A stretch of DNA of 64,000 nt from Candidatus Promineifilaceae bacterium (GCA_041570195.1 JBFFWQ010000018.1:466-64465); one strand, 5' to 3'; counted from the stretch's first letter, positions 9,829 through 54,608 are shown. The notes: a model not told the origin generated them from the letters alone. A program made the numbers and translations.

Positions 9829-9848
9829 GTTATCGGACCGCGTGAGCT

Positions 9849-10755: not shown

Positions 10756-11934
10756 CTAGGAAATCGAACCGATGCCATATGCGCCGTGAAGTTCCTGGCC
10801 GGCATTGAATCGGTCCACAGCATAGATATCGATGGGTACGCGAGGCGCCTGGCCCAATATGGTTTGCGCAAGACCTTCGCCAATGGTGGGGGCCAGCTTG
10901 AAGCCATGTCCGCTGAAGCCGGTCGCTACGAATAATCCTTCATGGCCTGGCACCGGACCGACCAGGGGGTTCCAATCGGGGGTGATATCGTATGGGCCCG
11001 TCCAACCGGAGATATATCGCCCTTCTTTAAAGGCCGGCATCCGGTTTGAGATGAGCCTGTCAATGCGCGTGACGTGCTCCAAATCGACGCGGTCGCGCAG
11101 GGTATCAGGGTCTTCAATCGGATCGCCATGGTCGCCCGTGCCAACCAACACGACGCCGCCCGTTTCCGGCCGGAAGTAGATCTTATCGGGCGTCGTTAGA
11201 TCCTTGACGATGGGCCAGTCGGGCTGGTAGCGTTGGTCGATCTTGAGAGTGATGACCTTGTGCCGGCTGACCTCGTAAGGAAAGCTTACGCCAATCATAC
11301 GCCCAAGTTGATTGACCCATGGGCCCGCCGCCAATACCACAACCGGGCCTTCGTAGGCGACATTTGTAGTATGTACCATCTTGGTCGCCCCGTTCAAGTC
11401 AATGCCGGTGACGGCTGCGCCAGTCTCTATGCCAACTCCCAAATCCTTGGCGCGCCGCGCATAAGCGGTTGTGGTCAGATATGGGTCGGCATAGCCAGCC
11501 ATCGAATCGTAACCAATCACGTCGACGTCCTCAACCTGAATCAGGGGGTGGACGTTTCGCGCCTCGGCCGGGCTCATGATGGCCGTATCGATATCATAGG
11601 CCTTTTGTTTGCGAAAGACCGCCATCATTGGTTCGCGGTGCTCTGCTGGACCAAGGATCAAGTAACCGGTCCGGCGCCAGCCCACGCTCCCGCCCACGAT
11701 TTCATCAAAGTTGGCGAAGACCTTCAGGCTCTCAACCGCATGAAGTAAATTGGCCTCAATAGAATAATGGGTGCGGACGATGGCGCATGATTTCGCCGTC
11801 CCTCCAGAGCATATTTCGCCCCGCTCCAGCACGACAACATTCCTGGCCCCGTTCTGTGCCAGATTGCACGCCACGCTGCAGCCCACCACCCCACCGCCGA
11901 TTACGATAAAGTCTGCCGTCTTGGTCTTGCTCAT
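10756..11934 (-). CDS. FAD-dependent oxidoreductase (DAO family; sarcosine oxidase beta / D-amino-acid oxidase-like)
   Basis: Dinucleotide motif DFIVIGGGVVGCS...VVVLER. ATG at 11934 has AAGGGA upstream. An alternative TTG start lies at 11958. Confidence 0.8.
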   Translation of the reverse strand: MSKTKTADFIVIGGGVVGCSVACNLAQNGARNVVVLERGEICSGGTAKSCAIVRTHYSIEANLLHAVESLKVFANFDEIVGGSVGWRRTGYLILGPAEHREPMMAVFRKQKAYDIDTAIMSPAEARNVHPLIQVEDVDVIGYDSMAGYADPYLTTTAYARRAKDLGVGIETGAAVTGIDLNGATKMVHTTNVAYEGPVVVLAAGPWVNQLGRMIGVSFPYEVSRHKVITLKIDQRYQPDWPIVKDLTTPDKIYFRPETGGVVLVGTGDHGDPIEDPDTLRDRVDLEHVTRIDRLISNRMPAFKEGRYISGWTGPYDITPDWNPLVGPVPGHEGLFVATGFSGHGFKLAPTIGEGLAQTILGQAPRVPIDIYAVDRFNAGQELHGAYGIGSIS

Positions 11935-11972
11935 ATTTCCCTTCTTGCTCTTCGGCAACTGCCGCTGTCAGT

Positions 11973-13286
11973 TTACATCCATGGAAACGGTGCGTTTGAC
12001 TTCGGCAGCGCCCTTTGCCCCTCAAAACGACTATAGGCGAAGGGTGCCAACAGTTCACTTGACTTGCCGGTCAGGATGCCGGCCACTTGTTCGCCAACGC
12101 CAATCATTTTGAAGCCATGATTCGAGTCGGCAATGACATATACATTGGGGCGCATGAAGTCAAATATCGGGAAGTTGTCGGCCGAAAAAGCCCCCACGCC
12201 ACCAGAAGGTACTTTGGAAGCAAACCGGCGCTTGCCCTCATAGCGCTTCATGCAGTGAGCTAGCGAGGCCACCCAAAGATCGTAAAACTTAGCGTCAACA
12301 CAATAATAGGGGCTGCGCGTGCCATAGGGATCGACGGCGATATCAGATCCGACGTTAACAGGTACCGCTCCGCCCTGTACGGAATGCTTGTCGCGCTTAA
12401 CGTAAATGCCCCAGGGCCGGTCCCACACCAACTGGCCGTCTTCGCCATACAATGGCACGTCGCTATCAACATGAATCAAGGGAGGACGTTGGCCATCGTC
12501 GGTAATGTGGATATAGGGATTCACCTCAATCTCGCCCTCCCTTAGAGCGAGGAAACGCCATAATTCCGTCTTTTGTCCTGGCTCTTGGGGATCGGGCACA
12601 TCCTGCGGGAGGGCCAGTAGATTCCAAAGCTTCTTGATCCACGGACCGACGGCGACGATCACATGACCAGCTTCCAAGTTGCCAAAATCTGTTTCTACGA
12701 CGGTGACATTACCGCTGCTGCTGAACTGAAAGCCAGTTACCTCTGGGCCAACAAGCAACTGAACATCTTCTCGCTCAGCTTTAATGGCCAGGCCATGGAT
12801 CGCCTGGCGGCTCCAGGCGTGCCCGCCCCGATGTTCGTGTAACAGCACTTCCAGTCTTTCGGCCCGCCAATCGTAGAAGATGTTCTGCATGTATCGCTTG
12901 ACTTCACGTTCGCCGACCACGAGCGTGGAGGGGTAACCCAGCTCTTGATGGCGCCTATGAACAGTTTCCAACCCCTCCCGCATGGGGGCGAAAGATGCGG
13001 TCAGGTAGCCGACCGAGTTATAAGCGAAATAGTCGGGATCCGATTCCCAAATATCCATGCAGTGTATCATCAAGCGTGTCATCGGCTCCTGATAATAGTT
13101 GCAGCGCACATTGCCGCATGCTACGCCCGAGGCGCCGGCGGCAATGCTACTCTTCTCGACTACCAGGATATCTTCGCCACCACCCTGCCCGTTGGCCTTC
13201 AGGTATTTGGCCAGGTGATAAGCGGTGGACAAACCATGAACGCCAGCTCCAATGATCAGGTACTCAACTTTCTTTGGTAATGCCAT
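11973..13286 (-). CDS. FAD-dependent oxidoreductase (DAO family), paralog of 41311-42645
   Basis: 437 aa. EYLIIGAGVHGLSTAYHLAK...VVEK. Colinear by eye with the 41311-42645 product from the N-terminus to the C-terminal ...PFPWM / ...HSPWV. Confidence 0.8.
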   Translation of the reverse strand: MALPKKVEYLIIGAGVHGLSTAYHLAKYLKANGQGGGEDILVVEKSSIAAGASGVACGNVRCNYYQEPMTRLMIHCMDIWESDPDYFAYNSVGYLTASFAPMREGLETVHRRHQELGYPSTLVVGEREVKRYMQNIFYDWRAERLEVLLHEHRGGHAWSRQAIHGLAIKAEREDVQLLVGPEVTGFQFSSSGNVTVVETDFGNLEAGHVIVAVGPWIKKLWNLLALPQDVPDPQEPGQKTELWRFLALREGEIEVNPYIHITDDGQRPPLIHVDSDVPLYGEDGQLVWDRPWGIYVKRDKHSVQGGAVPVNVGSDIAVDPYGTRSPYYCVDAKFYDLWVASLAHCMKRYEGKRRFASKVPSGGVGAFSADNFPIFDFMRPNVYVIADSNHGFKMIGVGEQVAGILTGKSSELLAPFAYSRFEGQRALPKSNAPFPWM

Positions 13287-13342
13287 TCAATTCACTCCTG
13301 AAAACAGCTAGCGCGGCCGCTACCGTTCAAATTCCGCGAGGA

Positions 13343-13816
13343 TCACGCCGCAATCGGGGCCAACTGGGCGCCGCTCACTGAAATCAGATCTTGAGGATCC
13401 AATTCGAGGCCGGCCAGCGGATCGCCGCTACTGATATTAACCATCTTGCAGCGCCCGATCGCCTCGTCAAAAATCACCGGCACATCTTCGGGCAAGCAGA
13501 CTGGCGCAACCGCGCCCTGCAGATAGCCTGTTTTCTGGTAGATCTCATCGGCCGAGGCAAATCTGAGCCTGGCCCATTCACCGCCTAGATAGGCGCGCAC
13601 GGCCTTGGGATCTAGACGAGCATCGCCAGTGACACAGGCCATCACATAGTGGTGGTTCTTGTCGCGTAGTAAAATTGACTTCACCATCTCTTCCTTGACA
13701 ACGCCACGTTGGGCGGCCGCGGCCGCCACAGTGTAAACCGGCTCATCGTGCGGCAGTAGACGAAAGAGTATATTCTTACTCTCCAACAGGCGGATGACTT
13801 TCGTGTCCGGGTTCAT
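13343..13816 (-). CDS. YbaK/ProX-type aminoacyl-tRNA-deacylase-like domain protein
   Basis: 157 aa from MNPDTKVIRLL. The pattern VKSILLRDKNHHYVMACVTGDARLDPKAV...GAVAP is YbaK/EbsC-like. The ATG at 13816 overlaps the upstream TGA (ATGA). Confidence 0.75.
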   Translation of the reverse strand: MNPDTKVIRLLESKNILFRLLPHDEPVYTVAAAAAQRGVVKEEMVKSILLRDKNHHYVMACVTGDARLDPKAVRAYLGGEWARLRFASADEIYQKTGYLQGAVAPVCLPEDVPVIFDEAIGRCKMVNISSGDPLAGLELDPQDLISVSGAQLAPIAA

Positions 13817-15195
13817 TGATCCATTGTATCGGATCGTTGGGCGAGGAGCTGGCCCAGAAAACTGATATCCGGCAGCTCCGCAACACGCCAAATCGTCAAT
13901 TCGAGCTCTGTCAACCTCTCTTGCGACAGGCACGCGCTCGCCAACCAGCGAAACTTCTCGCGCAATACGTCATCGGTCGGCGGATATTCCGCCCCCCAAT
14001 CCGCCTCAACCTCGCCCGTGTCGAACATGGAACCATCTCTGGTCCTGATTTGAACCTGGGCGATTCTTTCAGCTGGGAAGCGAGCACTAAAACCACTATC
14101 TTCCACCAGTTCTACCCGTTCCGCTAATTGGTTCACGAGCGGATGAAGCAAACCTTGACCACTTAACTCGTCCGGCCCAAGTTGCCGGTGAACCAGGGCG
14201 GCCGCTACCGGAAACGGCAGACTATACTGGGCAACCTCTGTGCTTTCTGGGTGAGCGTCCTTCAACCGTACAGCCTCGTGAAAGGTGGCTACCCGGATGC
14301 GCTGGATGGTTTGCGGATCAAGGTCATGCTGTTTCTGTAGCATAAGAACGCCAGTAATCGCCGGCTGGGCCCAGCGACAGACGGCGAATGGCTTGAAGTA
14401 TTGCTCGGCGATCAGCCATCTATCCCCTAAATCAGCCCAAAATCGGCCGATTTCTTTTGCCTCCACCGTCAGGGAAGGCGCGCCCGAGAAACCGTCGCCG
14501 GCCAACAAGGCCGCGCTCACGCCGGTCATGGCGCCCCAGCCTGAGCCATCTTTTAGCATCGTCGGGTGATCAATACAGCGCATCATTTGGGAACGCGGGC
14601 CATGGTACTCGGCGATTCCAAGGGCATGTCGGGTCTGGTCCTCGTTAAGTCCAAGACGCCGGGCGATGATAGCCGCACAGCCAAGGGCATTCCAGGCCCC
14701 AGAAGTGTGATAATCACATGCCGTGGCATGCAGGGCTAGACCGGCTCTCAGAGCGATTTGGTAGCCCACCGTCAGGGCAGCTAAGAATTCTTGGCCGCTG
14801 ATCGGCTCATTTAAGACTATTGTCGAAAAGTTTGCAGGAACCAAAGCTGCGCCAGCGTGCCCCTTGGTCAGGGTGAAACCGTCGTGGATGTCCAGGGCAT
14901 CAATGGTCATGCCGTTGGCCAGCGCAGCGCCTGGCGGCGAGACCGGCCGTCCATCCACCCACAACTGGGCCCCAACACCGGCATATGTCGAGGCGCAAAA
15001 ATCGTGGATTATCTGGGAGAGCCTGGTCTGCCGCCCACCAACAGCAGCGCCCAGAGTATCGAGCAAGCAGCGCCGCGCCTGGCTCTGAATCGGGAGCGGC
15101 AGATCGTCCCAATTAGTTTCGTGAATGAATTCCGTTACCCGCAACGATGTTTCGGCACGCTTCAAACCATTTCGCCTCGACAATGTCAGCGACAC
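13813..15195 (-). CDS. MmgE/PrpD family protein (2-methylcitrate dehydratase-like)
   Basis: 460 aa with a GTG start. N-terminus VTEFIHETNWDDLPLPIQSQARRCLLDTLGAAVGG is typical of MmgE/PrpD. Confidence 0.85.
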   Translation of the reverse strand: MSLTLSRRNGLKRAETSLRVTEFIHETNWDDLPLPIQSQARRCLLDTLGAAVGGRQTRLSQIIHDFCASTYAGVGAQLWVDGRPVSPPGAALANGMTIDALDIHDGFTLTKGHAGAALVPANFSTIVLNEPISGQEFLAALTVGYQIALRAGLALHATACDYHTSGAWNALGCAAIIARRLGLNEDQTRHALGIAEYHGPRSQMMRCIDHPTMLKDGSGWGAMTGVSAALLAGDGFSGAPSLTVEAKEIGRFWADLGDRWLIAEQYFKPFAVCRWAQPAITGVLMLQKQHDLDPQTIQRIRVATFHEAVRLKDAHPESTEVAQYSLPFPVAAALVHRQLGPDELSGQGLLHPLVNQLAERVELVEDSGFSARFPAERIAQVQIRTRDGSMFDTGEVEADWGAEYPPTDDVLREKFRWLASACLSQERLTELELTIWRVAELPDISFLGQLLAQRSDTMDQ

Positions 15196-15399
15196 TTAAG
15201 GTATTCTCGCGGAGATTGAATCCCCCGGCAAGTGCAGGGAAGCAGTTATAGTGATGCGGAACCGGTAATTAGGGCCGGCGTGGAAGCGATCGGCGATCTC
15301 CGACCGAGGGAAGAGAAGTAGCCTACTGAGCCACAAATGGCCATCTAAACATAGTCTGTCCATATCGGAGAATGCGTTTTTTACGGACATAGTATCAGG

Positions 15400-16344
15400 T
15401 CAGTAATTGAAGTGAGGCAGGAGCTCACTGGCCAACAAATCCAGGGAGTCCAAGTCGTCCAGGTCGTTATGCTGCAGCATGAATCGTTCGATGCCGGCCT
15501 CGACGAAGGCCATGACTTGGTCCATCAACTGCTGGGGGCTGCCTCCCAGATAACCGGTTGCCAGCCAGTCCGGGAGGGTTGCCGGTAGGCTTGGGAACAC
15601 TGACCGGTGGGCGTCGATACGATTCTGAATGACCAGTTCGTTCCGTCCAATGACAAATGGGATCATCAACGAGCGCTTCAAAGTGGCCGGATCGCGGCCG
15701 ATAGCCTGGCAATTCTCATCTAGCTGGGCTGACTTCTGGCGAAAGAGCTCGATTCGCTCGTAGGAGAAATTCCATTCTGTGGCTTGCCGGGCCACGATTT
15801 GCAGTGTTTTCTTGCCCTTGCCGCCCATGATGATTGTTGGGTTGGCTCGTACCGGTTCAGGATGCGTTTCGGCCTTGGCCAACTGAAAATGCTTGCCCTC
15901 ATAGCTGGCTGGTCGGCCCGTCCACAGGAGCTTGATCACCTGTGCACCTTCATCCAGCATCTCCAACCGGTCTTTGTAAGGCGGGTAATTGACACCAAAC
16001 ATGCGGTGCTCGCCGCCAAACCAGCCAGCTCCCAAGCCTAAGTCTAATCGGCCGCCAGATAGCTGGTCCACGGCGGCCGCCATTTTGGCCAGCATGATCG
16101 GGTGACGAAAGGTTATTGGACAGACCATCGGTCCAAAGCGAATGCGCTTGGTCCGCATTGCCAAAGCCGTAAGGGATGGCCAAAGCGCCAGGGAGGTGCG
16201 CTGGGGAAATCCCTCCAGGGCCGTCAAGTGATCGGAACGAAACAATGAGCCGAAGCCAACTCCTTCCACCGTCTCGGCCATCTTGAAGAACCGTTCCCAG
16301 GTCAAATCTTCCTGACCTTCGATCATGATGCCTATCTCAGCCAT
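15400..16344 (-). CDS. LLM-class (luciferase-like) flavin/F420-dependent oxidoreductase
   Basis: Start at MAEIGIMIEGQ (ATG 16344, 8-nt overlap with the upstream stop). FGSLFRSDHL and LDLGLGAGW motifs of luciferase-like monooxygenases. Confidence 0.8.
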   Translation of the reverse strand: MAEIGIMIEGQEDLTWERFFKMAETVEGVGFGSLFRSDHLTALEGFPQRTSLALWPSLTALAMRTKRIRFGPMVCPITFRHPIMLAKMAAAVDQLSGGRLDLGLGAGWFGGEHRMFGVNYPPYKDRLEMLDEGAQVIKLLWTGRPASYEGKHFQLAKAETHPEPVRANPTIIMGGKGKKTLQIVARQATEWNFSYERIELFRQKSAQLDENCQAIGRDPATLKRSLMIPFVIGRNELVIQNRIDAHRSVFPSLPATLPDWLATGYLGGSPQQLMDQVMAFVEAGIERFMLQHNDLDDLDSLDLLASELLPHFNY

Positions 16345-19300
16345 GTTCTTTCTCCTGCCACAGTCTGGCCATCTGTTCAGCCAATATCGAGCCAACAGCC
16401 GAATTTATCACCGGCAAGAAAGGGCGAGGTACGGCCGGAACCGCCCATACGGCCTCGACGCCAACGCCTTGCACGGCTGGCAGATGTTGGTTTCCTTCAG
16501 GCACGAGAAGCAGTATCTTGGCGTTTCTCGTCCGGTAAACCTGCGTATCAACCAGGGCAGCCGCCTGGAAGAGCGGATCGGTTGCCAGGACGACGATCAG
16601 CGTGTCGTGGTCAGCGTCCGGCCCGCCAACGGTTGCCAATGGACCATGCCAGGCAGAGTCGGTGTACAAGGCCTCAGCCATGAACCCCCGGCTTCGTAGT
16701 GAACGGCCGATGCTGCCGGCAGACGCGTAATCCTGGCCGCCGCCGATAATCTGTACTTTGTCGTACCCGGCAGCCACAGACGGCCGCAAGATGTCGCCGA
16801 TTTCCTTTTCTGCTTGCTCGTCAGCCAATAATCTGGCCAGATGCAAGGGGATCTGGGCCAGGCTGGCTTCCCACAATGCCGTGTCCCTTCCCCGGCGCCG
16901 CGCCAGGCGTATACCTAGGCCGATCAAGTAGACTGCGGCCAAAAGCTCCAACTGAAAAGGCGAAAGGTCCGATGGTAGGGCAATGGTTTGAGAATCCCGA
17001 ATGGCCAGGATGGCGCCAGCGCGGATTAACCGGAGGCTGGCGGTATCAGGCTGGGTTTGCGGCAGCTCGTCAATAAAGCGCCGGTAGACGGTCAGGTCGA
17101 CGGCCAGCAAATCTGACCAGGCCGCGGCTGCCATTCGGGCACCTGTTTCTGTAGCTTCCGTGTCGGTCAGTACTACGAGGTGGCCAGCGCCAAGCGTCGC
17201 AAGTTTGTCGGGCAAGGGTTCGGAAATAACGGCCATCGCCGACCGCAAGGTCACAGTCGCCTGGAGGGACGCCCGTGAGGGGCCATGCCTGGCCCGGTCC
17301 CAAGCCTCATATGCCTGACGGCCGCTGGCGAACTCGGCCAGGGAAATGTTTTCGAAGCTACGACGAGCTTCGACCGTTTCGCGCGGTTCTGCGCCAGTCA
17401 CCGTGACAGATTTAGCTAGATTTCGCGGCCGGTCGATCTCCTCCGGTGAGAGATCTCGCGCATAAGCCATTGCCACGGCCAGATCAAAGAAGAAGGGCGC
17501 ATCAATTAGCGCCTGGAATGCCCCAGTAACCTTTGGTGAGACGAAAAGCTCGACGTTAGTTGCCTCCAGCCAGGAGTCTAGTCGATCGTTGGCCGTGGTA
17601 TGGATGAGGCAACGGACACCAAGATCTCGCAGGTAGTTGACGAGGTAACTGGTTTCCCGTTGTGCTTCGGTCGAAGTAGCATTGATGATAAACAGCACGC
17701 GCCGGCGATCGTCGTCGAACAGGGCGCTTCGTTCGATCAACGGCCGCAGGCTGGCGGCATGAAAATCCGAGGTCCGCGCTACAATCTGGGCCAATTCCTC
17801 GATTTTTAGCTCGGCTTCGATGTCTATCGGGCTATTGCCAACCACGACTACTTTGTTAAAGAGGCGGCATTGCCGGGCTACCTGGCGCAGTCGCCTGCGG
17901 CGCTCCTCGTCTTCGATGAGACGTCGCACGTGACGAGGGACTGTATGCGTTAGTTCATCCACAAGTCGAGCCAGGATGGAAGCATCATGACCGGCCTCAT
18001 ACATACTGGCTAGCCGTAAGGCCAGCAAGTTGAGGGTCATCAGGATGGCCTGGAAACCCTTGACCGTCGCCACTGAGACTTCGACCCCAGTCTGTACGTC
18101 CAATGTGCCGCCACTGACGGCAGTCCGCCGGCCCAGATCACTTTGCGGTCGGCCGGTGATCGCCAAGCGTACCACACCGGTTTCGCCCAGCCAGCTATCG
18201 ACTTTCAATAGCGAATCAGTCGTACCGGACCAGGAGATCTCAATGGCCAAATCACACGCCTGGTCTATTGCCTGGCCCAAATTGAGCACCGCTACCGGCC
18301 GGTACACATTGACCAGGATTCCGGGCAACAATTGGCGAAACAAAGGGGCGGCCGCCTGGGCATCGCGCCAGGAGCTGCCTTCGCCGATGATCAGCAAGCG
18401 CCCAAGTTTCTCCAGGCGAGGACCATATTGTTCGACCAAGACGTGTTCATTTAGACCGGGCGCCAACAAGCGGCCATTTTCCCAAGCGCTTTCCAAAGCC
18501 GGCTGCCCGTTCCGAACATAGTGATCGGCGATGCCCTCCATAATATCGGGTATCTCGGCAATGTGACTCTCGGTGTAGGAATCATGACCCTGTTTGCCAA
18601 CCATGGCCGGGTTGAGCTGCATGGTCTGGGCCGAAACAGGAACCGACGTGCCATCATAACGGCTTACCAGCACAGCTGGTACGCTTTGGTCAGCATGCCC
18701 TTCTTTTTCGATGCGAACGAACAGTTCTTCGCCATGGTGAAGCTGGTTGTCCAGGAACAACGCCTCCACGGTAAAAGTGTTGAGGATTTCTAAAATCTCA
18801 TCCTGCGCCCTATCGGCCGGGATAAGATCCTCCTTAGCAGCCCGTCGCAAATCAGATATTCGTCGCGCAGCCTCGCTCACCTCATCCTTTGACCATAACA
18901 TGAGCGCTGCATTGACATCGGAAGCCACCATCAAGGTACGGGATCCGTCGTCAAACTGCCGGGTTGCGATAGCAATCGGCTTGCGGTGGCTGGTCACATA
19001 AAGCACATCCGGGCGGCGCCTGCTGTAAAAGGCGCAGGCATGGGCATTGCCTTCTCGTAACCGCCAGATGGCCAAACGCAAGGCGCGTTCCTCCGATTCT
19101 ATGATTCTCTGCTGGTCTAGCCTTTCCAAGAAGGCTTCGCTATCGGGCGGAAGCTGTCCCTCGGCCAACATGTAGGCCATTCGCTCCCACTCGAAGGTAA
19201 TAACCTCGGTGGTGTTCTCAGATCGGTGTACCGTTTCGCCGCTGGGCAAGCCACGCGCTTGCCACCATTGCTTCTGATCGGCAAGAACACCCAACATGAG

Positions 19301-19639
19301 GGTGGCATTGTGGGAACCGTTTTCGCAGGCGATGCGATCTTGAGCCCGATCGGATAGTGGATGGGCATTCGTTTCATTTACCGCGCCAACCATCGCCCAC
19401 CGGCCGTGTCCCATAACCACCTGCATATCCCCAGGAAGTATCTTGGGCAGGGGTTGGAGGGCTATTCTTCTCCGCAATCGTTCGCCTGTGCCCACCACAC
19501 GGCGCAAAGCGAAGCGTCCGTCTTCACCAATTATAGCGATGCCGGACGAATCCGGGGCCCGATAAGCCAACAGTTCCAGGGCATCCAGAACCCGGGTGAC
19601 ACCCCCAGAATGGCCATAGAAGCAGACAATGCCGCACAT
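16337..19639 (-). CDS. class-II (Ntn) glutamine amidotransferase domain fused to four SIS (sugar isomerase) domains; double-length GlmS-like protein
   Basis: 1100 aa. N-terminal MCGIV (catalytic Cys2), GRWAM...NAHP and ENGSH. SIS-like cores at LLIIGEGSSW...IEISWSGTTDSL, VVVVGNSPIDIEAELKIEEL, HLVVLTDTEATE and VQIIGGGQDYASAGSIGRSLRS...WHGPLA. Confidence 0.8.
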   Translation of the reverse strand: MCGIVCFYGHSGGVTRVLDALELLAYRAPDSSGIAIIGEDGRFALRRVVGTGERLRRRIALQPLPKILPGDMQVVMGHGRWAMVGAVNETNAHPLSDRAQDRIACENGSHNATLMLGVLADQKQWWQARGLPSGETVHRSENTTEVITFEWERMAYMLAEGQLPPDSEAFLERLDQQRIIESEERALRLAIWRLREGNAHACAFYSRRRPDVLYVTSHRKPIAIATRQFDDGSRTLMVASDVNAALMLWSKDEVSEAARRISDLRRAAKEDLIPADRAQDEILEILNTFTVEALFLDNQLHHGEELFVRIEKEGHADQSVPAVLVSRYDGTSVPVSAQTMQLNPAMVGKQGHDSYTESHIAEIPDIMEGIADHYVRNGQPALESAWENGRLLAPGLNEHVLVEQYGPRLEKLGRLLIIGEGSSWRDAQAAAPLFRQLLPGILVNVYRPVAVLNLGQAIDQACDLAIEISWSGTTDSLLKVDSWLGETGVVRLAITGRPQSDLGRRTAVSGGTLDVQTGVEVSVATVKGFQAILMTLNLLALRLASMYEAGHDASILARLVDELTHTVPRHVRRLIEDEERRRRLRQVARQCRLFNKVVVVGNSPIDIEAELKIEELAQIVARTSDFHAASLRPLIERSALFDDDRRRVLFIINATSTEAQRETSYLVNYLRDLGVRCLIHTTANDRLDSWLEATNVELFVSPKVTGAFQALIDAPFFFDLAVAMAYARDLSPEEIDRPRNLAKSVTVTGAEPRETVEARRSFENISLAEFASGRQAYEAWDRARHGPSRASLQATVTLRSAMAVISEPLPDKLATLGAGHLVVLTDTEATETGARMAAAAWSDLLAVDLTVYRRFIDELPQTQPDTASLRLIRAGAILAIRDSQTIALPSDLSPFQLELLAAVYLIGLGIRLARRRGRDTALWEASLAQIPLHLARLLADEQAEKEIGDILRPSVAAGYDKVQIIGGGQDYASAGSIGRSLRSRGFMAEALYTDSAWHGPLATVGGPDADHDTLIVVLATDPLFQAAALVDTQVYRTRNAKILLLVPEGNQHLPAVQGVGVEAVWAVPAVPRPFLPVINSAVGSILAEQMARLWQEKEHG

Positions 19640-19670: not shown

Positions 19671-20387
19671 CTAACCCCCTACTCGCAACGCTTCCAGGGC
19701 AAACCAGCCAATCGGAGCAACATCCAGGCTGCGACCTGCCTCGAGGATCGTGCGCCACAGATAAGTAGCCAGCGAGCGGCCACCAATCAATGAGAAGAGC
19801 GGCACCGCTGGTCCATCCGGTGGCTTCATGTCGTGGCGAAGAATGAGTTGGCGGGTCTTGGCCACGCTGCTTTGTCTAGCATTCAGATCAGGGAATTGGC
19901 TGGCATGGAAATCCAGGCTACAGAGGCGGCTAAGCAGCCCGGCGCTAAATGGGCCAATTAATAGCAATTCAGCCCGACCGTGGGTTATGTCGCTAACAGT
20001 GACTAAATCACCACTTCGTTCCCCTTCTTTGGTCAATATCTTTTCTGCGGAGTCTTCTCCGCCGGGTTCCAAATGCACAAAGAACTGATCGTCACGCAAA
20101 CGATAGACATATCTGGAGCCCAGGACCACGCCCTGGCCAATTGCCAGCGATGGTATGGCCCAGGCCGCTTGTAGAACGCTTTCCGCTTGCTTTCCCTCGA
20201 CTACGATCTTGCCACTGGCCGAGCTATCGGCGAGGGCAACGCCGCGCCTGGCGATCGTCTCCTCTTGCTCAACCGTGGTGAAAACCTGGGGCAATTGCCA
20301 ACCGGCAAGATCGACGAAAGTCGCCCCAATCTCTCGGGCAACATCATGTAACGGTAGCGCTTTGGTAGGTAATTGGCTCGAGTTCAT
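19671..20387 (-). CDS. soxG: sarcosine oxidase gamma subunit family (GcvT-like fold)
   Basis: 238 aa directly after soxA (TAG followed immediately by ATG). GcvT-like N-terminus LHDVAREIGATFVDLAGWQLP...GVALADSSASGKIVVEG. Confidence 0.75.
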   Translation of the reverse strand: MNSSQLPTKALPLHDVAREIGATFVDLAGWQLPQVFTTVEQEETIARRGVALADSSASGKIVVEGKQAESVLQAAWAIPSLAIGQGVVLGSRYVYRLRDDQFFVHLEPGGEDSAEKILTKEGERSGDLVTVSDITHGRAELLLIGPFSAGLLSRLCSLDFHASQFPDLNARQSSVAKTRQLILRHDMKPPDGPAVPLFSLIGGRSLATYLWRTILEAGRSLDVAPIGWFALEALRVGG

Positions 20388-23282
20388 CTAACTCCTCAAT
20401 CGCTCGCCCTCTGGGTCGTAAAACGGACCATGATGCACTTGCGCTTCGATTGTCGCGCCGTTCCGGCGAATGGTGAAGGTCGCCCCCTCCTCTTTGGCTA
20501 CGGTTTCCGGCAGCCAACAGAGGCCAATCGGTTTTGCCAATGTAGGGCTATAACGACTGGATGTAACCCAGCCAATGATATCTTTCCGGTTCTCACTGCC
20601 TGCTTCCACGATCTGCAAGCCTTCTTCCGGCACCGTTCTGCCATCTCTGATCCTGAACCCTACCAGGCGCTGCTGTTGGCCATCCATGGCGATACGCATC
20701 AAAGACCGCTGGCCCAAGAAGTCAGCTTTGTCTGGTTTGACCGCCCAGGCCATATCAGCGGAAATCGGATCCGAAAGGGCGTCAGTGTCCTGGCCGACGA
20801 TGATATGAGCCTTTTCCAGGCGCAGTATGCGTTGAGCTTCGACTCCGAAGGGAGTGATGCCAAAAGGCTCGCCGGCCGACATGATCGCTTGCCACAAGAA
20901 ACGGCCGTAACCGGCCGGGCAATGAATCTCATACGACAGCTCGCCGGTAAAACCAATCCGTAACAAGCGACAAGGCACGCCGGCCACTTCTACCTGGCGT
21001 AGATGCATAAAAGGGAATGCCTCGTTGGAAAGATCTGCTTCGACGAGTGTTTGCAGCACCTGGCGGGCCTTTGGCCCAGCTAGATTGAAGGCCGCATTCA
21101 CTTCGCTCAGGTCGCTTATATTGACACCATCCCCCCAGCCCGATTGCACCCACCACTGCATCCACTCATAAATAGTCGTTGCCCCAGAGGAAGTCGTGGT
21201 CATATACCATTCCCGGGCAGCAACCCGGGCGGTCACGCCATCATCCAGGATGATGCCCTCGTCATTGCACATCAAACCGTATCGGATACGCTCCATAGCT
21301 ACGTTCTGCCACTTGTTGACGTAAATGCGGTCTAGAAGGTCTGGCACTCCGGGACCATCTAGCCGAAACTTGCCAAGGGTACTAACGTCGATCAGGCCGA
21401 CCCGCTCTCGAACGGCCCGCACCTCTGCTTCTGGATCGCCGTAATGTTCTGGCCGTTTCCATAAACCGGCAACCATCATTTTGGCGCCGTGCCTCTTTTG
21501 CCATTCGTGAACTGGCGATATCCGCTCCGGTTCCATGTTTTGGCCAGCCAGCACCCCCAATGAGATGGGCGTCATGGGTGGGCGGGCGGTCGTCGTGCCC
21601 GTTTCTTCGATCGTTTGGCCGTTGGCTCGAGCGCAGAGGTGAACGGTATTCAGCGAACACATTTTGCCCTGGCATGGTCCCATGGAAATGGTGCTGTAGC
21701 GTTTAAGAAGCTCAATACTGTCATAACCTTCTGCGATAGATTGCTCCAGATCTTTCTTGGTGACGTCTTCGCAAAAGCACAAGAATTGCTTCTTTTTGCC
21801 GGGCACGAAAACCAGGTCAGACGTACGGCCCACTTGATCTTTCTTGATGGCCTCAATCCCGGTTCGTTCTTCCTCCGACGGCCTCTCACATAGTTCCAGA
21901 AAGGCGGCCGCTTCCCGTCCGGCGAAACGCCCCTCAGCAAGCTGAGCCAACAGTTCGTGAGTGCCAGCTACCCGGCCGGCAGCGAATATGCCCGCCGGCA
22001 ACGCCTGGGGTAAGAACTCACCTATTTGCCGATCGAAAGCCAGTTGGCCGTTTGCCTGATATATCAAGCCGCTGGCAGGCGCCCAGCCGACGCTCACGGC
22101 AATTAAATCACAGTCCACCATTTGTTCGGCACCGGTTAGCTCATGTCCGTTCACTGGGGAAATGATCGCCTGGCTAACTTCACCCGAACCTTTTGCCGCC
22201 ACGATCGTATGACCCCAGTAGGCATGGGTCTCCTCAGATGTCACTTGGCGGACTAGCGGTGAATCACTGGCCGGACGCTCGTCAACCACAGCGGCCACCT
22301 GGAGGCCGGCACTCTTCAAATCGGCCGCCACCGCCCAGCCATAGTCATTGGCCGTGACAACCAGGGCCTTTTCACCCGGAGCGACGCCATAGAGGTTTAT
22401 CATTCTTTGGACAGCGCTGGCTAACAGCACGCCTGGCAAGTCATTGTCGTCAAAGAGCAGCGGCTGCTCATAAGCGCCAGTGGCAAAGATGACGCTCTGG
22501 GCGCGGATCTTGAAGAGACGATCCTGCTGGGCCGCTGACAGCCAGTTGTCCTCATACCAACTTAAGACCGTCGTATTCAAATGGACGGCAAGGTCCGGCT
22601 CTTGCCCGATGGCCTCGAGCAGTTTCGGCAGGGACGCAGCAGTACCAGGTGAAGCAAAGCGCAAATGGCCGCCTAAAGCCGGATTTTCGTCAAGCAGAAT
22701 AACGCGCGCCCCCTCAGCGTTGGCCGCGATGGCCGCGCTCAATCCGGCCGGACCGCCGCCCACCACGACCACGTCGGCGTGCTGGTATTCCTTGTCGTAG
22801 CGACCCGGTTCTGTATCGAGGTTCACCTGACCCAATCCGGCCGCCCGGCGCAACATCCTTTCGAAAGTAGGCCAGAGAAACTGAGGCCGGATGAATGTCT
22901 TGTAATAGAAACCAGCGGGCAAGAAGCGATCCCCCAGGCTGGTCAGGGACATCACGTCTCGTTTTAATGATGGCCAGGCGTTTTGCGACCTTACCTTCAT
23001 TGCAGATTCAACCGGCCGGATGCAGGCCCTCACATTCGGTTCGTCGCCAACCTGGACCAGGCAGTTCGGGCACTGCCCGGCACAACACAGCAACCCACGC
23101 GGCCGGTGGTATTTGAAAGACCGGCTGAAGACCTTTACGCCAGCCGCGGCGAGAGCCGAGGCGATAGTGTCCCCTGGATGGGCATGGCAGGTCTGGCCAT
23201 CAAAGGAGAAAGAGAAACTGCTATCGCGATCGATGACCTCACCCGGTTGGGGAGAGAGCCGGTTCTTTTGCCGTTTTGTCAT
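20388..23282 (-). CDS. soxA: sarcosine oxidase alpha subunit family
   Basis: About 964 aa from MTKRQK (ATG 23282, ATGA overlap with soxD). N-terminal FSFDGQ...GDTIASALAA...YHRPRG, ADVVVVGGGPAGL and a C-terminal GcvT-type folate-binding domain. Confidence 0.9.
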   Translation of the reverse strand: MTKRQKNRLSPQPGEVIDRDSSFSFSFDGQTCHAHPGDTIASALAAAGVKVFSRSFKYHRPRGLLCCAGQCPNCLVQVGDEPNVRACIRPVESAMKVRSQNAWPSLKRDVMSLTSLGDRFLPAGFYYKTFIRPQFLWPTFERMLRRAAGLGQVNLDTEPGRYDKEYQHADVVVVGGGPAGLSAAIAANAEGARVILLDENPALGGHLRFASPGTAASLPKLLEAIGQEPDLAVHLNTTVLSWYEDNWLSAAQQDRLFKIRAQSVIFATGAYEQPLLFDDNDLPGVLLASAVQRMINLYGVAPGEKALVVTANDYGWAVAADLKSAGLQVAAVVDERPASDSPLVRQVTSEETHAYWGHTIVAAKGSGEVSQAIISPVNGHELTGAEQMVDCDLIAVSVGWAPASGLIYQANGQLAFDRQIGEFLPQALPAGIFAAGRVAGTHELLAQLAEGRFAGREAAAFLELCERPSEEERTGIEAIKKDQVGRTSDLVFVPGKKKQFLCFCEDVTKKDLEQSIAEGYDSIELLKRYSTISMGPCQGKMCSLNTVHLCARANGQTIEETGTTTARPPMTPISLGVLAGQNMEPERISPVHEWQKRHGAKMMVAGLWKRPEHYGDPEAEVRAVRERVGLIDVSTLGKFRLDGPGVPDLLDRIYVNKWQNVAMERIRYGLMCNDEGIILDDGVTARVAAREWYMTTTSSGATTIYEWMQWWVQSGWGDGVNISDLSEVNAAFNLAGPKARQVLQTLVEADLSNEAFPFMHLRQVEVAGVPCRLLRIGFTGELSYEIHCPAGYGRFLWQAIMSAGEPFGITPFGVEAQRILRLEKAHIIVGQDTDALSDPISADMAWAVKPDKADFLGQRSLMRIAMDGQQQRLVGFRIRDGRTVPEEGLQIVEAGSENRKDIIGWVTSSRYSPTLAKPIGLCWLPETVAKEEGATFTIRRNGATIEAQVHHGPFYDPEGERLRS

Positions 23283-23551
23283 GTCTCGCGCGGCTCCTTT
23301 CCCCAACGGTAAGTACGTTCAATCACGTTTGACTTCGTGTGCCGTTCGGCCAGGAACCAAAGTTGGCAGCCAGCGCCATGATACCACCATTCCTTCTGCC
23401 ACCCCTGTTTATTGTCTCGCATGTAAATGTAGTCAGTCCACTCGTCGGGGCTGACCGTTAGAGGCTCGGGCGGCCGGGGATTGTATTCACCGCCATAACG
23501 AAACTCCTGTACACTGCGGTCCCCGCAATTGGGACATTTGATGAGGATCAC
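23279..23551 (-). CDS. soxD: sarcosine oxidase delta subunit family
   Basis: 90 aa. MILIKCPNCGDRSVQEFRYGGE...WWYHGAGC is the classic SoxD pattern. Confidence 0.9.
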   Translation of the reverse strand: MILIKCPNCGDRSVQEFRYGGEYNPRPPEPLTVSPDEWTDYIYMRDNKQGWQKEWWYHGAGCQLWFLAERHTKSNVIERTYRWGKEPRET

Positions 23552-23577
23552 TGGCTTCCTCCGTCACTTACCGTGAC

Positions 23578-24816
23578 TCAATGACCGACGGACGCCGCGC
23601 CCTTCTCGCCGACGAGGTCATGCTCGTAGAAACGGGCCAGGCGGAATGGTTTTAGCAAGTCGGGTGTCTTGCCCGTTGCAATCAACTCGGCCATTCTCTT
23701 GCCAGAAACTGGCACAGCCTTAAACCCATAAGTCCCCCAACCGACATCTACCAAGAAACCCTCGACAGGAGTTACGCCCATGATCGGGCTGTAATCTGGG
23801 GTCATATCACACAGCCCAGCCCATTGTCGAAGCAATCGCACATGATGTAAGGATGGGAATAGCTCTAGTATGTGACCGGCAATGCCCTCAATGAACGCCG
23901 AGGAGCCGCGCATGGAATAGGAGGCAAAGGGATCGACAGCCGCGCCCATGACCAGCTCGCCGCGATCTGATTGGCTAACGTAAACGTGCAAGCTGCCTGA
24001 GACGATAATCACGTCAAGGAATGGCTTCAGCGCTTCCGTTACACAAGCTTGAAGCGGAAAAGTTGTCACCGGCAGCTTAACACCGACCATATCGGCAATG
24101 GTCGTACACCATCCGGCTGTGGCATTCAGCACTGTCCCGGTCTTGATCGGCCCTCGCGATGTCTCTACGCCCACCACCTGGCCCTTCTCAACTTCGATGC
24201 CTGTCACCTCCGTCATCTGGTGGATATGGATTCCGCTCAAGTCAACCTGATGCGCGTAACCCCACACCACGGCATCATGTCGGACAACGCCGCCCGGCGG
24301 ATGATAGAGGGCCGCCAAAATCGGATAACGTGGGTGTTGGCTTACGTCGATAGGCGGGCAAAGACGCTTAATCTCTTCCGGCCAAATCAAGCGCGAGTCA
24401 ACTCCCTGGAGCTGATTAACTTCCGCCCGGCGACGCATGGTACGTACAGCGCCGTCGGTATGGGCCAGGGTCAGGTGACCGCGTTGACTGAACATGACGT
24501 TGAAATCCAGCTCAACCGACATCTGTTCGTAGAGCTTCACGCTTTCATTGTAGAAACGCACCCCTTCCGGAGTCAGGTAATTGCTACGAATGATGGTTGT
24601 GTTGCGGCCGCTCCCTCCAGAGCCAATATAGCGCTTATCCAACACCGCCACATCGGTAATGCCGTGATCCTTAGCCAGGTAATAAGCGCAAGCCAGCCCA
24701 TGGGCGCCGCCGCCGACGATGACCACATCATACTGGTCCTTCAATGATCTCTGCCGCCACATGCGAGGCGGCGGCCGGTTGCCGTTTATGGCCTGGCGAA
24801 TCAACTTCAAAGACAT
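23578..24816 (-). CDS. soxB: sarcosine oxidase beta subunit family
   Basis: 412 aa. YDVVIVGGGAHGLACAYYLAKDHGITDVAVLDK...GRNTTIIRSNY. Confidence 0.9.
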   Translation of the reverse strand: MSLKLIRQAINGNRPPPRMWRQRSLKDQYDVVIVGGGAHGLACAYYLAKDHGITDVAVLDKRYIGSGGSGRNTTIIRSNYLTPEGVRFYNESVKLYEQMSVELDFNVMFSQRGHLTLAHTDGAVRTMRRRAEVNQLQGVDSRLIWPEEIKRLCPPIDVSQHPRYPILAALYHPPGGVVRHDAVVWGYAHQVDLSGIHIHQMTEVTGIEVEKGQVVGVETSRGPIKTGTVLNATAGWCTTIADMVGVKLPVTTFPLQACVTEALKPFLDVIIVSGSLHVYVSQSDRGELVMGAAVDPFASYSMRGSSAFIEGIAGHILELFPSLHHVRLLRQWAGLCDMTPDYSPIMGVTPVEGFLVDVGWGTYGFKAVPVSGKRMAELIATGKTPDLLKPFRLARFYEHDLVGEKGAASVGH

Positions 24817-24893: not shown

Positions 24894-25493
24894 CTATTGA
24901 CCTTCACTTTGCCATTCTTCCATTTTGGCCACCAGGCGCCGTTCGAAGGAACCATAGCCTGTATAACGGATCTCCAGCGGCAATCCGAGATCTCGGGCGA
25001 TATTGTGAGCCTTTTGTGACAACGCCGGGTCTTCTTTCTGTACCAGATACACCATGCGCCGGTAATTGCGGAAGTACTCGTCCCTTAGATTGGGATATCG
25101 ATCCAGACCCAAACCCTTGAGCACCGTTCCGCGAAAGGCCCGCACAAGGAAATCGGTCAAAAAGAATGTGCCCGGTTCTTCGTCCATTAGTTCCTGAAAA
25201 CGCTGGCCGGCGTACATCTCATAACAGTGAGGACCCTCTATACGCTCTATCTTATAACGTTCCAGCAGTTGATCCAGGGCCCCCCTGGATCCACAGTCGC
25301 CAAAGAGGACGAAGATCCGATCGTATTGCTCATGAAGTTCCTGGAAGCGTTTGTCCACATCAGGAGCGATGCGCTCCGGGTACATGTGGTCGATGGCAGG
25401 TACGCCAACCAGGTCTACATCCCAACCGTGTCGATCGATGATGGCAATAACCTCATGGGCAAGCGCTCCACACATGATGAATGCCGTTTTCAT
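24894..25493 (-). CDS. DUF1638 domain-containing protein
   Basis: 199 aa. CGALAHEV...[11 protein letters not shown]...GPHCYEMY...FFLTDFL matches my recollection of DUF1638. The ATG overlaps the MttB stop (ATGA, 25490-25493). Confidence 0.8.
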
Positions 25494-54562: not shown

Positions 54563-54608
54563 TTGCCTCCTCGCGGCACACTGGCAGAGTACCAACTATC
54601 TTAATGCC

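Follow-up and report, generated by a model that had tools for sequence, protein, structure and literature searches.

The DNA analysed here is a stretch of 64,000 nucleotides from Candidatus Promineifilaceae bacterium (hereafter the window), which carries a gene for a GlmS-like protein (GlmSL) at 16337..19639 on the minus strand. The ORF list and the translation gave an ATG start and 1100 uninterrupted codons followed by a stop, in agreement with the first-pass annotation, from which only the strand was absent. The gene begins 31 nt past the stop of a soxG/GCV_T-like gene (19671-20387) and shares 8 nt (ATGGCTGA) with the start of a gene for a luciferase-like (LLM, F420-type) oxidoreductase (15400-16344), whose ATG is at 16344; the position between these two genes and the 8-nt overlap had been described. 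Pfam and NCBIfam assigned the surrounding genes, all on the minus strand. Those upstream are soxA-like (20388-23306), soxD (23279-23551), soxB-like (23578-24816), a DUF1638 gene (24894-25493), and a gene for a non-pyrrolysine MttB-family methyltransferase, MTTB_a (25490-27022). Downstream of the LLM gene lie genes for an MmgE/PrpD-family protein (13813-15195), a YbaK/tRNA_edit protein (13343-13933), the DAO-family flavoprotein DAO437 (11973-13286), and an MTOX/MSOX-like flavoprotein (10756-11958). The genes from LLM to MTOX/MSOX (10756..16344) are downstream genes of the operon and co-occur with GlmSL in other loci. The nearest PDB neighbour of DAO437 was 1y56_B (deposited as "sarcosine oxidase"), and those of the PrpD-like protein were IDS-epimerase and cis-aconitate decarboxylase.

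The soxB/soxD/soxA/soxG-like genes (19671..24816) are predicted to encode a heterotetrameric N-methyl amine oxidase/dehydrogenase of the sarcosine-oxidase family. In the PDB, SoxB matched the beta subunit of TSOX at 1e-113, and all four sox genes were present, with NCBIfam scores of SoxA and SoxB under the cut-offs (928 vs 1164 and 503 vs 529, respectively). The soxBDAG and mgdABCD genes are easily confused (PMC13236597). DUF1638 has been linked to corrinoid reactivation (PMC12478193). Orthologues of MTTB_a with 74-79% identity adjoin GlmSL in most Chloroflexota loci. Among the 31 non-giant GlmSL loci, 19 contained an MttB-family gene (Pfam MTTB) and 26 contained at least one cluster gene, and MttB-family genes directly flank homologues of only 26-28% identity to GlmSL. 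An OpuAC-type ABC transporter was found immediately upstream of the GlmSL homologue in three loci (L027, L007, L035); no betaine genes were found within 10 kb of the homologue in L014 and L020. Genes for MttB-family methyltransferases, soxBDAG-like proteins, flavin oxidases, and OpuAC transporters thus recur beside GlmSL in several bacterial phyla. The setting is also broader than the sox operon assigned in the first pass: the cluster is a cobalamin/MttB-type quaternary-amine island, in which the link to MttB is conserved best.

About 100 full-length homologues with 47-87% identity were found in Chloroflexota, which excludes a fusion artefact. The homologue at 87% identity is encoded with contiguous architecture in a closed 4.46-Mb genome. 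GlmSL, with its 1100 residues, is a real and conserved relative of glucosamine-6-phosphate synthase that carries the sugar-isomerase half a second time, in degenerate form. It matched the NCBIfam GlmS models TIGR01135 and NF001484 with 153 bits (cut-off 418) and 176.6 bits (cut-off 381), so that the equivalog/subfamily level was not reached, and the match was confined to residues 315-747. Domain parsing with Pfam detected SIS1 clearly, SIS4 and GATase_6 weakly, and no other SIS subdomain in the GlmSL sequence, and structure was needed to recognize four subdomains. The mean identity within the family was highest in the Lys tail described below (92%), followed by SIS4 (76%) and SIS1 (74%).

The full-length AF2 model had a pLDDT of 89.1 and a pTM of 0.88. 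When residues 1-750 were compared with the closed form of E. coli GlmS (2J6H, 2j6h_A) by Foldseek, the match had an E value of 2.2e-31, a target TM of 0.88, and an rmsd of 3.7 A; this part is modelled as a complete GlmS in closed form. A model of residues 750-1100 alone (pLDDT 89.5) matched the isomerase domains of GlmS (E ~1e-11, TM 0.61-0.68, ~360 columns), and by this prediction the part is a second, degenerate GlmS isomerase domain. There are therefore four SIS subdomains overall, and the proposed architecture of one Ntn amidotransferase domain followed by two SIS-SIS pairs was borne out.

The enlarged Ntn (class II) amidotransferase-like domain (residues 1-345; 18605..19639, minus strand) was delimited by PDB phmmer, by alignment of the family HMM to GlmS residues 1-100, and by the GlmS fold match. 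It is ~100 residues longer than in GlmS, and most homologues carry a further insertion of ~175 residues. The N-terminus reads MCGIV, and C2, R27, R80-W81, H93, and N107-G108, which include the R-W and N-G elements recognized earlier, are invariant in alignment A1 and across 99-106 homologues (in close homologues, C2 99/99, R80/W81 103/103, N107/G108 106/106). Judged from the sequence, the glutaminase machinery is intact. The glutamine site is altered. Pairwise alignment to E. coli GlmS placed T143, within the ENTTEV motif (residues 141-146; 19202..19219, minus strand, coordinates checked), at the position of D123, which in GlmS is a ligand of the glutamine alpha-amino group. The residue census of 106 close homologues counted Thr in 104, Ser in 2, and Asp in none, so the Asp-to-Thr change reported in the first pass holds throughout. 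Alignment and census also revealed that Thr76/His77 of GlmS are replaced with Met/Val throughout the family. It is thus likely that plain glutamine is not the amide donor of GlmSL and that the donor is a non-standard one. Our leading guess is an N-alpha-methylated (substituted) glutamine-type compound derived from a betaine. The invariant Asn142 could, however, offset the change from Asp to Thr, with glutamine staying the donor.

Isomerase module 1 (SIS1, SIS2, and the C-tail; residues 400-750; 17390..18442, minus strand) was analysed by HMM alignment to GlmS residues 248-608, by the residue census, and with the NCBIfam GlmS models. It carries S423, S469-W-S471-G-T-T474, K612, E615, and K743, which correspond to the phosphate loop (S303, S347, S349, T352), K485/E488, and K603 of GlmS. 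All these Ser, Thr, Lys, and Glu residues are invariant or nearly so (S423 107/107, E615 103/103, K743 102/102 in close homologues). No segment is better conserved in the family than the one that contains K743 (DRPRNLAKSVTVT; 17396..17434, minus strand); it is the C-terminus in GlmS, whereas the GlmSL chain runs on. Q348 in the phosphate loop of GlmS is replaced with the invariant W470 (alignment A1), and the acceptor may therefore not be fructose-6-phosphate. The position of GlmS H504 is occupied by L631, with no His in 103 homologues, and SIS2 lacks the KHGP motif (AASLRPLIER). Apart from these changes, the sugar-phosphate site has been well kept, and clear divergence is thus confined to the glutamine site. 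The first-pass annotation had regarded both substrate sites as divergent, which does not apply to an acceptor site that keeps the phosphate loop, the Lys/Glu pair, and the Schiff-base Lys tail of GlmS.

Isomerase module 2 (linker, degenerate SIS3, and SIS4; residues 751-1100; 16340..17389, minus strand) was defined from the AF2 model of this part, Foldseek, and HMM alignment of SIS4 to GlmS residues 412-511. The SxSGxT loop, the Lys/Glu pair, and the Lys tail are all missing from it, and the Glu position is occupied by R982, with no Glu among close homologues. What it does contain is the His loop DSAWHGPLA (residues 994-1002; 16634..16660, minus strand), which is invariant in A1 and aligns with ELKHGPLA of GlmS. 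H998, the equivalent of GlmS H504, is kept in 100 of 101 close homologues. The KHGP-type motifs, which had been described as altered, are thus altered in SIS2 and not in SIS4 with its invariant WHGPLA. Module 2 is a degenerate copy that keeps essentially only the His loop that module 1 lost, and not a second working isomerase as the term duplicated module had implied. The His loop is the sole segment of the full-length model with a pLDDT below 50.

Neither module holds both Glu and His: Glu615+16 is Leu631, and His998-16 is Arg982. In FrlB, FraB, and GlmS, the spacing between the Glu and the His is always 16 residues, and the Glu of one monomer forms a site with the His of the other (PMC10285752). 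His998 of module 2 thus appears, from the residue pattern, to supply the catalytic histidine missing from module 1. By analogy with the GlmS and FrlB homodimers, in which both subunits contribute to each Glu/His pair, we infer that GlmSL forms a pseudo-dimer within one chain and has a single composite site; module 2 would take the place of the second GlmS subunit against module 1 and bring His998 into the module-1 site. The complementary residue loss, the pTM of 0.88, and the conservation profile are consistent with this packing. The two halves are fused and asymmetric, and therefore only one site can be complete; with His998 completing the module-1 site, each polypeptide would have exactly one complete acceptor site.

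We propose, with a probability of about 55%, that GlmSL functions as a two-site amidotransferase of the GlmS type that has been rebuilt into an intramolecular pseudo-dimer, probably uses a donor other than plain glutamine, and serves cobalamin/MttB-dependent betaine catabolism. The Ntn domain would hydrolyse a carboxamide with Cys2 as the nucleophile, Asn107/Gly108 as the oxyanion hole, Arg80 for a carboxylate, and Trp81 as the channel gate. The released nitrogen would pass to a ketose-phosphate site to which SIS1 contributes Ser423, Ser469, Ser471, and Thr474, SIS2 contributes Lys612 and Glu615, and the tail contributes Lys743. The ring-opening/general-acid His, which the other subunit provides in GlmS and FrlB, would be His998 of the fused module 2, which would have no other catalytic function. 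GlmSL would act beside the MttB methyltransferase and the SoxBDAG-type N-methyl oxidase on the amide nitrogen of a betaine-derived skeleton. A point against a synthase is that a catabolic pathway has no obvious need for amino-sugar phosphate synthesis.

In a second reading, GlmSL would be a catabolic deaminase/deglycase. The composite SIS site, acting as in FrlB, FraB, or GlmD, would cleave the C-N bond of an Amadori/Heyns-type amino-ketose or amino-aldose phosphate from a demethylated betaine-like substrate, and the Ntn domain would remove the side-chain amide of the same molecule. The asparaginase and deglycase pair of fructose-asparagine utilisation is the model for such a reaction. GlmSL and the FrlB deglycase share the Glu/His/phosphate-loop set, the operon encodes, besides an MSOX/MTOX-like flavoprotein of the DAO family, a PrpD-family protein whose closest match is iminodisuccinate epimerase, and the missing alpha-amino-binding Asp fits an N-alpha-glycated glutamine. 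However, the invariant GlmS-specific Lys603 tail and Trp74 gate serve ammonia transfer to sugar, no conserved sugar kinase or sugar transporter was found across the clusters examined, and the top conserved neighbour is an MttB methyltransferase and not an Amadori-type oxidase. We consider this direction unlikely. The amino-sugar, Amadori, or opine-type conjugate that the first pass suggested may be the substrate. It is quite improbable that GlmSL is an ordinary glucosamine-6-phosphate synthase isozyme, which uses glutamine and fructose-6-phosphate and lies in these clusters by chance or for regulation. GlmSL has its fold and most of its catalytic residues in common with GlmS, but the scores of 153 and 177 bits fall below the GlmS cut-offs of 418 and 381, D123, T76, and H77 are replaced across the whole family, the extra 350-residue module is conserved, and so is the MttB/Sox/OpuAC linkage across phyla.

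A class II amidotransferase adjoining a four-subunit Sox-like enzyme also recalls mgsABC-mgdABCD, and the easy confusion of soxBDAG with mgdABCD and the SoxA and SoxB scores under the NCBIfam cut-offs would fit an analogue of the N-methylglutamate pathway. In such an analogue, a gamma-glutamyl amide would be the source of the methylamine (or ammonia) freed by the Ntn domain, the SIS site would load this amine onto fructose-6-phosphate to give N-methyl-glucosamine-6-phosphate, and the SoxBDAG-like enzyme would demethylate this to tetrahydrofolate. We regard this as very improbable, since no glutamine-synthetase-like GMAS gene was found in the 64-kb window or the related loci examined, known non-Pyl MttB-family enzymes take quaternary amines and not methylamine, and the loss of Asp123 would be unexplained because a gamma-glutamyl amide has a free alpha-amino group. 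That an assembly error or a frameshift has fused two neighbouring genes, a reservation raised in the first pass, has a negligible probability: the ~100 homologues are contiguous in independent assemblies and one closed genome, and in every one the chain continues from the GlmS-type tail into module 2 uninterrupted by a stop. The opposite was seen in just two long-read MAG loci (L028, L029), in which the gene is split into pieces.

The nearest known system to the proposed pseudo-dimeric amidotransferase is GlmS/GFAT (EC 2.6.1.16; E. coli GlmS PDB 2J6H, 1JXA, 1MOQ). Common to both are, in GlmS numbering, the N-terminal Cys, Arg26, Arg73-Trp74, His86, and Asn98-Gly99, as well as the two SIS subdomains, the Ser/Ser/Ser/Thr phosphate loop, Lys485/Glu488, the closed-form fold, and a counterpart of the C-terminal PRNLAKSVTV tail with Lys603. 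Unlike GlmS, GlmSL has Asp123 changed to Thr, Thr76/His77 to Met/Val, and Gln348 to Trp, and has His504 only in the extra fused degenerate module of ~350 residues and not at the cognate position; it lies in betaine-catabolic clusters, whereas GlmS lies with glmU. The FrlB/FraB deglycases and the GlmD/NagB-II and AgaS deaminases are double-SIS enzymes whose Glu and His pair meets across the two-fold interface (PMC10285752), as proposed for GlmSL, but they are homodimers with two equivalent sites and without an Ntn domain, whereas in GlmSL the amidotransferase domain is complete and the Lys tail of GlmS is present. The N-methylglutamate pathway (MgsABC and MgdABCD) resembles the GlmSL locus in that, in a methylated-amine context, a class II amidotransferase gene adjoins the genes for a four-subunit flavoenzyme of the SoxBDAG type, which is folate-linked and N-demethylating. 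N-methylglutamate synthase (MgsABC/GlxBCD type), however, has GXGXG/FMN glutamate-synthase acceptor domains in place of the SIS isomerase domain, and Pfam found none in GlmSL and none among the neighbour genes. The GlmSL clusters also differ in having MttB/corrinoid methyltransferases at the centre and no GMAS.

Members of the MttB superfamily act on glycine betaine (MtgB), proline betaine (MtpB), carnitine (MtcB), and gamma-butyrobetaine (MtyB). The surroundings of GlmSL share with such quaternary-amine systems an MttB-family methyltransferase, a corrinoid protein, a RACo/RamA-type activase, DUF1638, a pterin-binding methyltransferase, and MTHFR. None of the described MttB-superfamily demethylation systems has a GlmS-like protein, and the literature search found no paper connecting such a protein with MttB-type demethylation. 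In agreement with the first-pass annotation, neither Pfam and NCBIfam nor the literature yielded a characterised family or a report of such a protein in methylated-amine catabolism; no role is yet known for a GlmS-like enzyme in quaternary-amine (betaine) demethylation clusters. Giant relatives of GlmSL show the same residue pattern (Glu 15/15, His 15/15), and in homologues of 908 aa, residues 771-925 are deleted so that SIS3 is dropped and SIS4 is retained.

GlmSL is encoded by an uninterrupted ORF of 1100 codons on the minus strand (16337-19639), as seen in the ORF list and its translation. The ORF starts with ATG-TGC (N-terminal sequence MCGIVCFYGH) 31 nt past the stop codon of the soxG/GCV_T-like gene, and its own stop overlaps the ATG of the following F420-type LLM oxidoreductase gene (start at 16344) by 8 nt (ATGGCTGA). 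Both the coordinates and the overlap had been given correctly in the first-pass annotation, from which the strand was absent. We found 476 relatives among 5.8 billion proteins, about 100 of them full-length with 47-87% identity. Where the source of a full-length homologue is named, it is a Chloroflexota MAG (Anaerolineae/Anaerolineales); homologues are annotated merely as "hypothetical" or "SIS domain-containing" or with a generic COG label. The 87%-identical homologue is present in a closed 4.46-Mb Chloroflexota genome, where the gene order is that of the window. The junction between module 1 (residues 400-750, SIS1, SIS2 and C-tail) and module 2 (residues 751-1100, with SIS3 and SIS4) is unbroken in all of the ~100 full-length homologues. 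This contiguous set, including the closed genome, rules out that GlmSL is a fusion or frameshift artefact, which the first-pass annotation had named as an outcome that would refute its reading.

Pfam assigned a single passing domain, SIS, to residues 411-541 (E 8e-9), and GATase_6 was below the threshold. The NCBIfam GlmS models aligned to residues 315-747 with 153 and 177 bits, whereas their cut-offs are 418 and 381. In the PDB sequence search, GlmSL matched E. coli GlmS (E 1e-15); residues 1-95 aligned with GlmS 1-89, and residues 408-747 with GlmS 289-608, a stretch that takes in the C-terminal PRNLAKSVTV tail. These profile and PDB matches indicate that residues 1 to ~750 form a complete but divergent GlmS-like unit, which is followed by ~350 more residues. 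Assignment of GlmSL to a known family was rejected, as sequence searches of Pfam, NCBIfam and the PDB yielded at most sub-threshold GlmS matches and SIS matches; together with a literature search, they revealed no family model, structure or paper covering GlmSL. An AlphaFold2 model of the full protein, with an alignment of 51 sequences as input, showed a mean pLDDT of 89.1 and a pTM of 0.88. Its residues ~1-750 superposed on the closed, ligand-bound E. coli GlmS (2J6H) with a target TM-score of 0.88 and an rmsd of 3.7 Å, and on human GFAT1 with a TM-score of 0.75-0.83. When the C-terminal 351 residues were modelled alone (pLDDT 89.5, pTM 0.90), GlmS/GFAT isomerase domains were among the top-ranked PDB matches (E ~1e-11, TM 0.61-0.68, ~360 columns). 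Thus, the fold matches of both parts bear out the architecture proposed from the sequence, an Ntn domain plus four SIS domains, while domain parsing by HMMs recovered just one of the SIS domains. Module 1 and module 2 resemble each other weakly in sequence (BLASTP E 0.004, hhalign probability 15%), on which grounds the idea that the isomerase module was duplicated in tandem recently was rejected; their kinship is visible solely through the fold and the His-loop motif. A free-standing or otherwise-fused module 2 was not found in 1.84 billion representatives, where all 33 phmmer matches were family members, fragments or giant relatives.

The residues of the sugar-phosphate site were mapped using E. 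coli GlmS from NC_000913 and an HMM of the GlmSL family. The phosphate-loop residues S303, S347, S349 and T352 of GlmS are retained in module 1 as S423, S469, S471 and T474, K485 and E488 as K612 and E615, and the tail residue K603 as K743, and all of these are invariant or near-invariant in the family. The sugar site had been described as divergent, which is not supported for module 1, the sole exception being the replacement of Gln348 by Trp470. Module 2 has neither the SxSGxT loop nor the Lys tail, and carries R982 at the Glu position. The reverse applies to H504 of GlmS. At this position module 1 has L631, with no His in 103 homologues, whereas module 2 has H998 within the invariant motif DSAWHGPLA (100/101), which is aligned to ELKH504GPLA of GlmS.

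In the FrlB/FraB/GlmS group, the spacing between the Glu and the His is always 16 residues, and the active site has its Glu supplied by one monomer and its His by the partner monomer (PMC10285752). In GlmSL, the residue 16 positions after Glu615 is Leu631, and that 16 positions before His998 is Arg982. Conservation in the family is highest in the Lys tail (92% mean identity), SIS4 (76%) and SIS1 (74%), and a 908-aa subfamily without residues 771-925 has dropped SIS3 and retained SIS4. The complementary loss of Glu and His at the 16-residue spacing, the conservation of these segments, and the loss of SIS3 with SIS4 kept suggest a pseudo-dimer. Module 2 would act as a built-in replacement of the GlmS dimer's second subunit and would donate His998 in the predicted packing, so that each GlmSL chain would possess one complete acceptor site. 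The pLDDT of the full model falls below 50 solely at residues 996-999, which correspond to the His loop. The same split was detected in the giant relatives (Glu 15/15, His 15/15), and a 1500-aa relative has SSHGPLVTV in its C-terminal part. If this is true, GlmSL is, as far as could be found, the first GlmS-type enzyme with a fused asymmetric pseudo-dimer instead of an obligate homodimer. Its architecture offers a testable case of pseudo-dimerisation, and the Glu/His pair split over a live and a dead module would be a natural experiment on the composite active site of SIS proteins.

In the amide-donor site, Cys2, Arg27, Arg80-Trp81, His93 and Asn107-Gly108 are invariant in the family, so that, judged by sequence, the machinery for amide hydrolysis via a thioester and the ammonia channel's Trp gate both appear intact. 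Asp123 of GlmS, which binds the alpha-amino group of glutamine, as is established for class II amidotransferases, is replaced by Thr143, directly preceded by an invariant Asn. This Asp-to-Thr change, noticed in the first reading of the window, is a family-wide trait (T in 104 and S in 2 of 106 homologues). The Q-loop residues Thr76/His77 of GlmS are Met83/Val84 in GlmSL. GlmSL is therefore a protein of the GlmS fold whose amidase and acceptor-site residues are present, whose Glu/His pair is split and whose alpha-amino pocket is altered. It would probably work like GlmS; as a member of GlmS, it fails on the curated score, on Asp123 and on His504 in cis, and it carries an extra module absent from any described GlmS, GFAT, FrlB, FraB, GlmD or AgaS.

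GlmSL lies within a minus-strand operon. Its members are, in order, the MttB-family (non-pyrrolysine) methyltransferase MTTB_a (25490-27022), DUF1638, soxB-like, soxD, soxA-like (20388-23306), soxG/GCV_T-like, GlmSL, the LLM oxidoreductase, an MmgE/PrpD-family protein, a YbaK-like protein (YbaK/tRNA_edit, aminoacyl-tRNA deacylase-type, 13343-13933), two DAO-family flavoproteins, Fe-ADH, a 461-aa protein (8443-9828), and a second MttB-family gene. SoxA and SoxB are below the NCBIfam cut-offs, and the closest match of the PrpD-like protein is an epimerase that acts on an N-substituted dicarboxylic amino acid. DUF1638 has been linked to reductive cobalamin recharging (PMC12478193). The substrate of MTTB_a could not be assigned from its PDB matches, since Pyl-type MttB, D. 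hafniense MtgB and a glycine betaine methyltransferase tie at ~267 bits. The whole window (1-64000) is a methylated-amine island. It contains at least five MttB-family paralogues (6843-8369, 25490-27022, 28060-29592, 42638-44179 and 53069-54595) and further encodes a DMGDH-like gene with etfBA, a corrinoid protein, a RACo/RamA-type activase, MTHFR, two pterin-binding methyltransferases, aldehyde:ferredoxin oxidoreductase, a molybdopterin oxidoreductase, an MR/MLE-family enzyme and a methylaspartate-ammonia-lyase-like gene.

We counted linkage across 31 independently assembled non-giant GlmSL loci. An MttB-family gene was present in 19 of them, and at least one of the cluster genes (MttB, Sox, the DAO-family flavoprotein at 11973-13286 in the window, PrpD-like) in 26. 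Loci whose GlmSL proteins are merely 53-64% identical have MTTB_a orthologues with 74-79% identity. The arrangement extends to loci whose GlmSL homologues are 26-28% identical: one has MttB-GlmSL-MttB with stop and start overlapping (L036), two have MttB-GlmSL (L037, L006), and one has MttB-soxBDAG-OpuA transporter-GlmSL (L035). An OpuAC-type betaine ABC transporter is encoded directly upstream of GlmSL in L027, L007 and L035. No MttB or Sox linkage was found in the loci of the giant Omnitrophota and Planctomycetia relatives (L030-L034). GlmSL is thus tightly coupled in the genome to genes of MttB-type quaternary-amine catabolism, as a conserved large enzyme that accompanies MttB-family genes both in Chloroflexota and in lineages farther away, among them a Desulfovermiculus MAG. 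In some clusters other nitrogen-releasing hydrolases directly abut GlmSL: in L005, the end of an arginase-family gene (9013-9999) is 1 nt ahead of it, and a CN_hydrolase gene (nitrilase/omega-amidase family) overlaps its stop in L006 (14587-15513), where amtB, glnK and glnD adjoin.

Quaternary amines are major marine osmolytes and precursors of methane and TMA. To our knowledge, none of the known MttB pathways, which serve glycine betaine, proline betaine, carnitine, gamma-butyrobetaine and choline, includes a step that would need a GlmSL-type enzyme, and our literature search revealed nothing relevant joining GlmS-like or SIS proteins with sarcosine oxidase, betaine or MttB. The partnership with MttB suggests that quaternary-amine (betaine) turnover under anaerobic or micro-oxic conditions involves a substrate, or a step of nitrogen handling, that has gone unrecognised. 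We infer that GlmSL works as an amidotransferase whose single acceptor site is composite, and that it would transfer the amide nitrogen from a non-standard, probably N-alpha-substituted glutamine-like donor to a ketose phosphate. For its physiological role we hypothesize, at a probability of only about 15%, that it is the missing enzyme for the amide in a catabolic route, not described so far, that breaks down "betainised" amino acids bearing an amide, for example glutamine betaine. The OpuAC-type transporter would bring the betaine in, and the adjacent MttB-family enzyme would take off its first methyl group, with a corrinoid as the acceptor. The Ntn site, without its ligand for a free alpha-amino group, would then take N-alpha-methylated glutamine, pass the amide nitrogen through the channel to a ketose phosphate and free N-methylated glutamate, from which the remaining methyls would be stripped by the DAO-family flavoproteins and by the SoxBDAG-like complex in the role of an N-methylglutamate-type dehydrogenase. 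Such a route fits the natural occurrence of glutamine betaine and glutamic acid betaine (PMC12706699, PMC4390839), and of N-methylglutamine and N-methylglutamate, which are real catabolic intermediates (PMC13236597). It also fits the ready confusion of soxBDAG with the N-methylglutamate dehydrogenase genes mgdABCD (PMC13236597), the sub-cut-off scores of SoxA and SoxB, and the likeness of the PrpD-like protein to an epimerase.

A plain GlmS isozyme would share the fold, but both the residue changes and the genomic context oppose it. GlmSL might instead act in a sugar-phosphate counterpart of the N-methylglutamate pathway, against which counts that no GMAS gene was found; an N-methylglutamate-pathway reading was rejected, as the window has no GMAS, GXGXG or FMN-domain genes. 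A catabolic deglycase or deaminase of the FrlB/GlmD type, corresponding to the Amadori conjugate suggested in the first-pass annotation, is a possible alternative to the amidotransferase.

Most homologues reach ~1280 aa through an insertion of ~175 residues that lies inside the Ntn domain, between query residues 64 and 73 (P0018-P0095; window ~19421-19450). The insertion is absent from the GlmSL of the window, which belongs to a shorter subfamily, and P0036 and P0049 have a shorter form of it. Distant relatives are 1500-1850 aa long with ~27% identity, the named ones being from Desulfovermiculus. The giant relatives (P0131-P0148, 2241-4868 aa), from Omnitrophota and Planctomycetia MAGs, contain the whole architecture of Ntn, SIS pair and His module internally. 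In these proteins the Cys position of the model falls near residue 310-350, behind a signal-peptide-like N-terminal segment ending in ...AWALRP, and, with the nucleophile so far from the N-terminus, proteolytic processing would be required. In two MAGs labelled MFD05684 (L028 10748-13829, L029 10748-13845), GlmSL is in two or three ORFs (P0098, 950 aa; P0104, 742 aa), which are probably sequencing frameshifts and not natural splits.

The 461-aa ORF had no match in Pfam, NCBIfam or PDB; a 50%-identical partial copy is present at the end of a related GlmSL cluster (L008). In the same cluster, a YbaK domain is fused to the C-terminus of GlmSL (P0096, 4468-8160). A tRNA-editing-type YbaK in a catabolic cluster might deacylate an ester intermediate or shield translation from an amino-acid analogue. 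The soxA-like gene, one 972-aa ORF in the window, is represented by two ORFs (442 and 503 aa) in CP070688, a closed genome of a close relative (L001 6430-9324), which is either a genuine split or an assembly frameshift. PYLIS_3 is the pyrrolysine insertion sequence of mttB, and this Rfam model scored above gathering at 25894-25991, 43044-43141 and 7256-7355 (all minus), inside three MttB-family genes. None of the three has an in-frame amber codon, and in the best match no stop falls at the model's UAG. The matches stem from the coding-sequence homology of non-Pyl MttB genes and not from a working PYLIS element. A tRNA gene was detected at 2540-2612 (+; Rfam tRNA, 67.8 bits).
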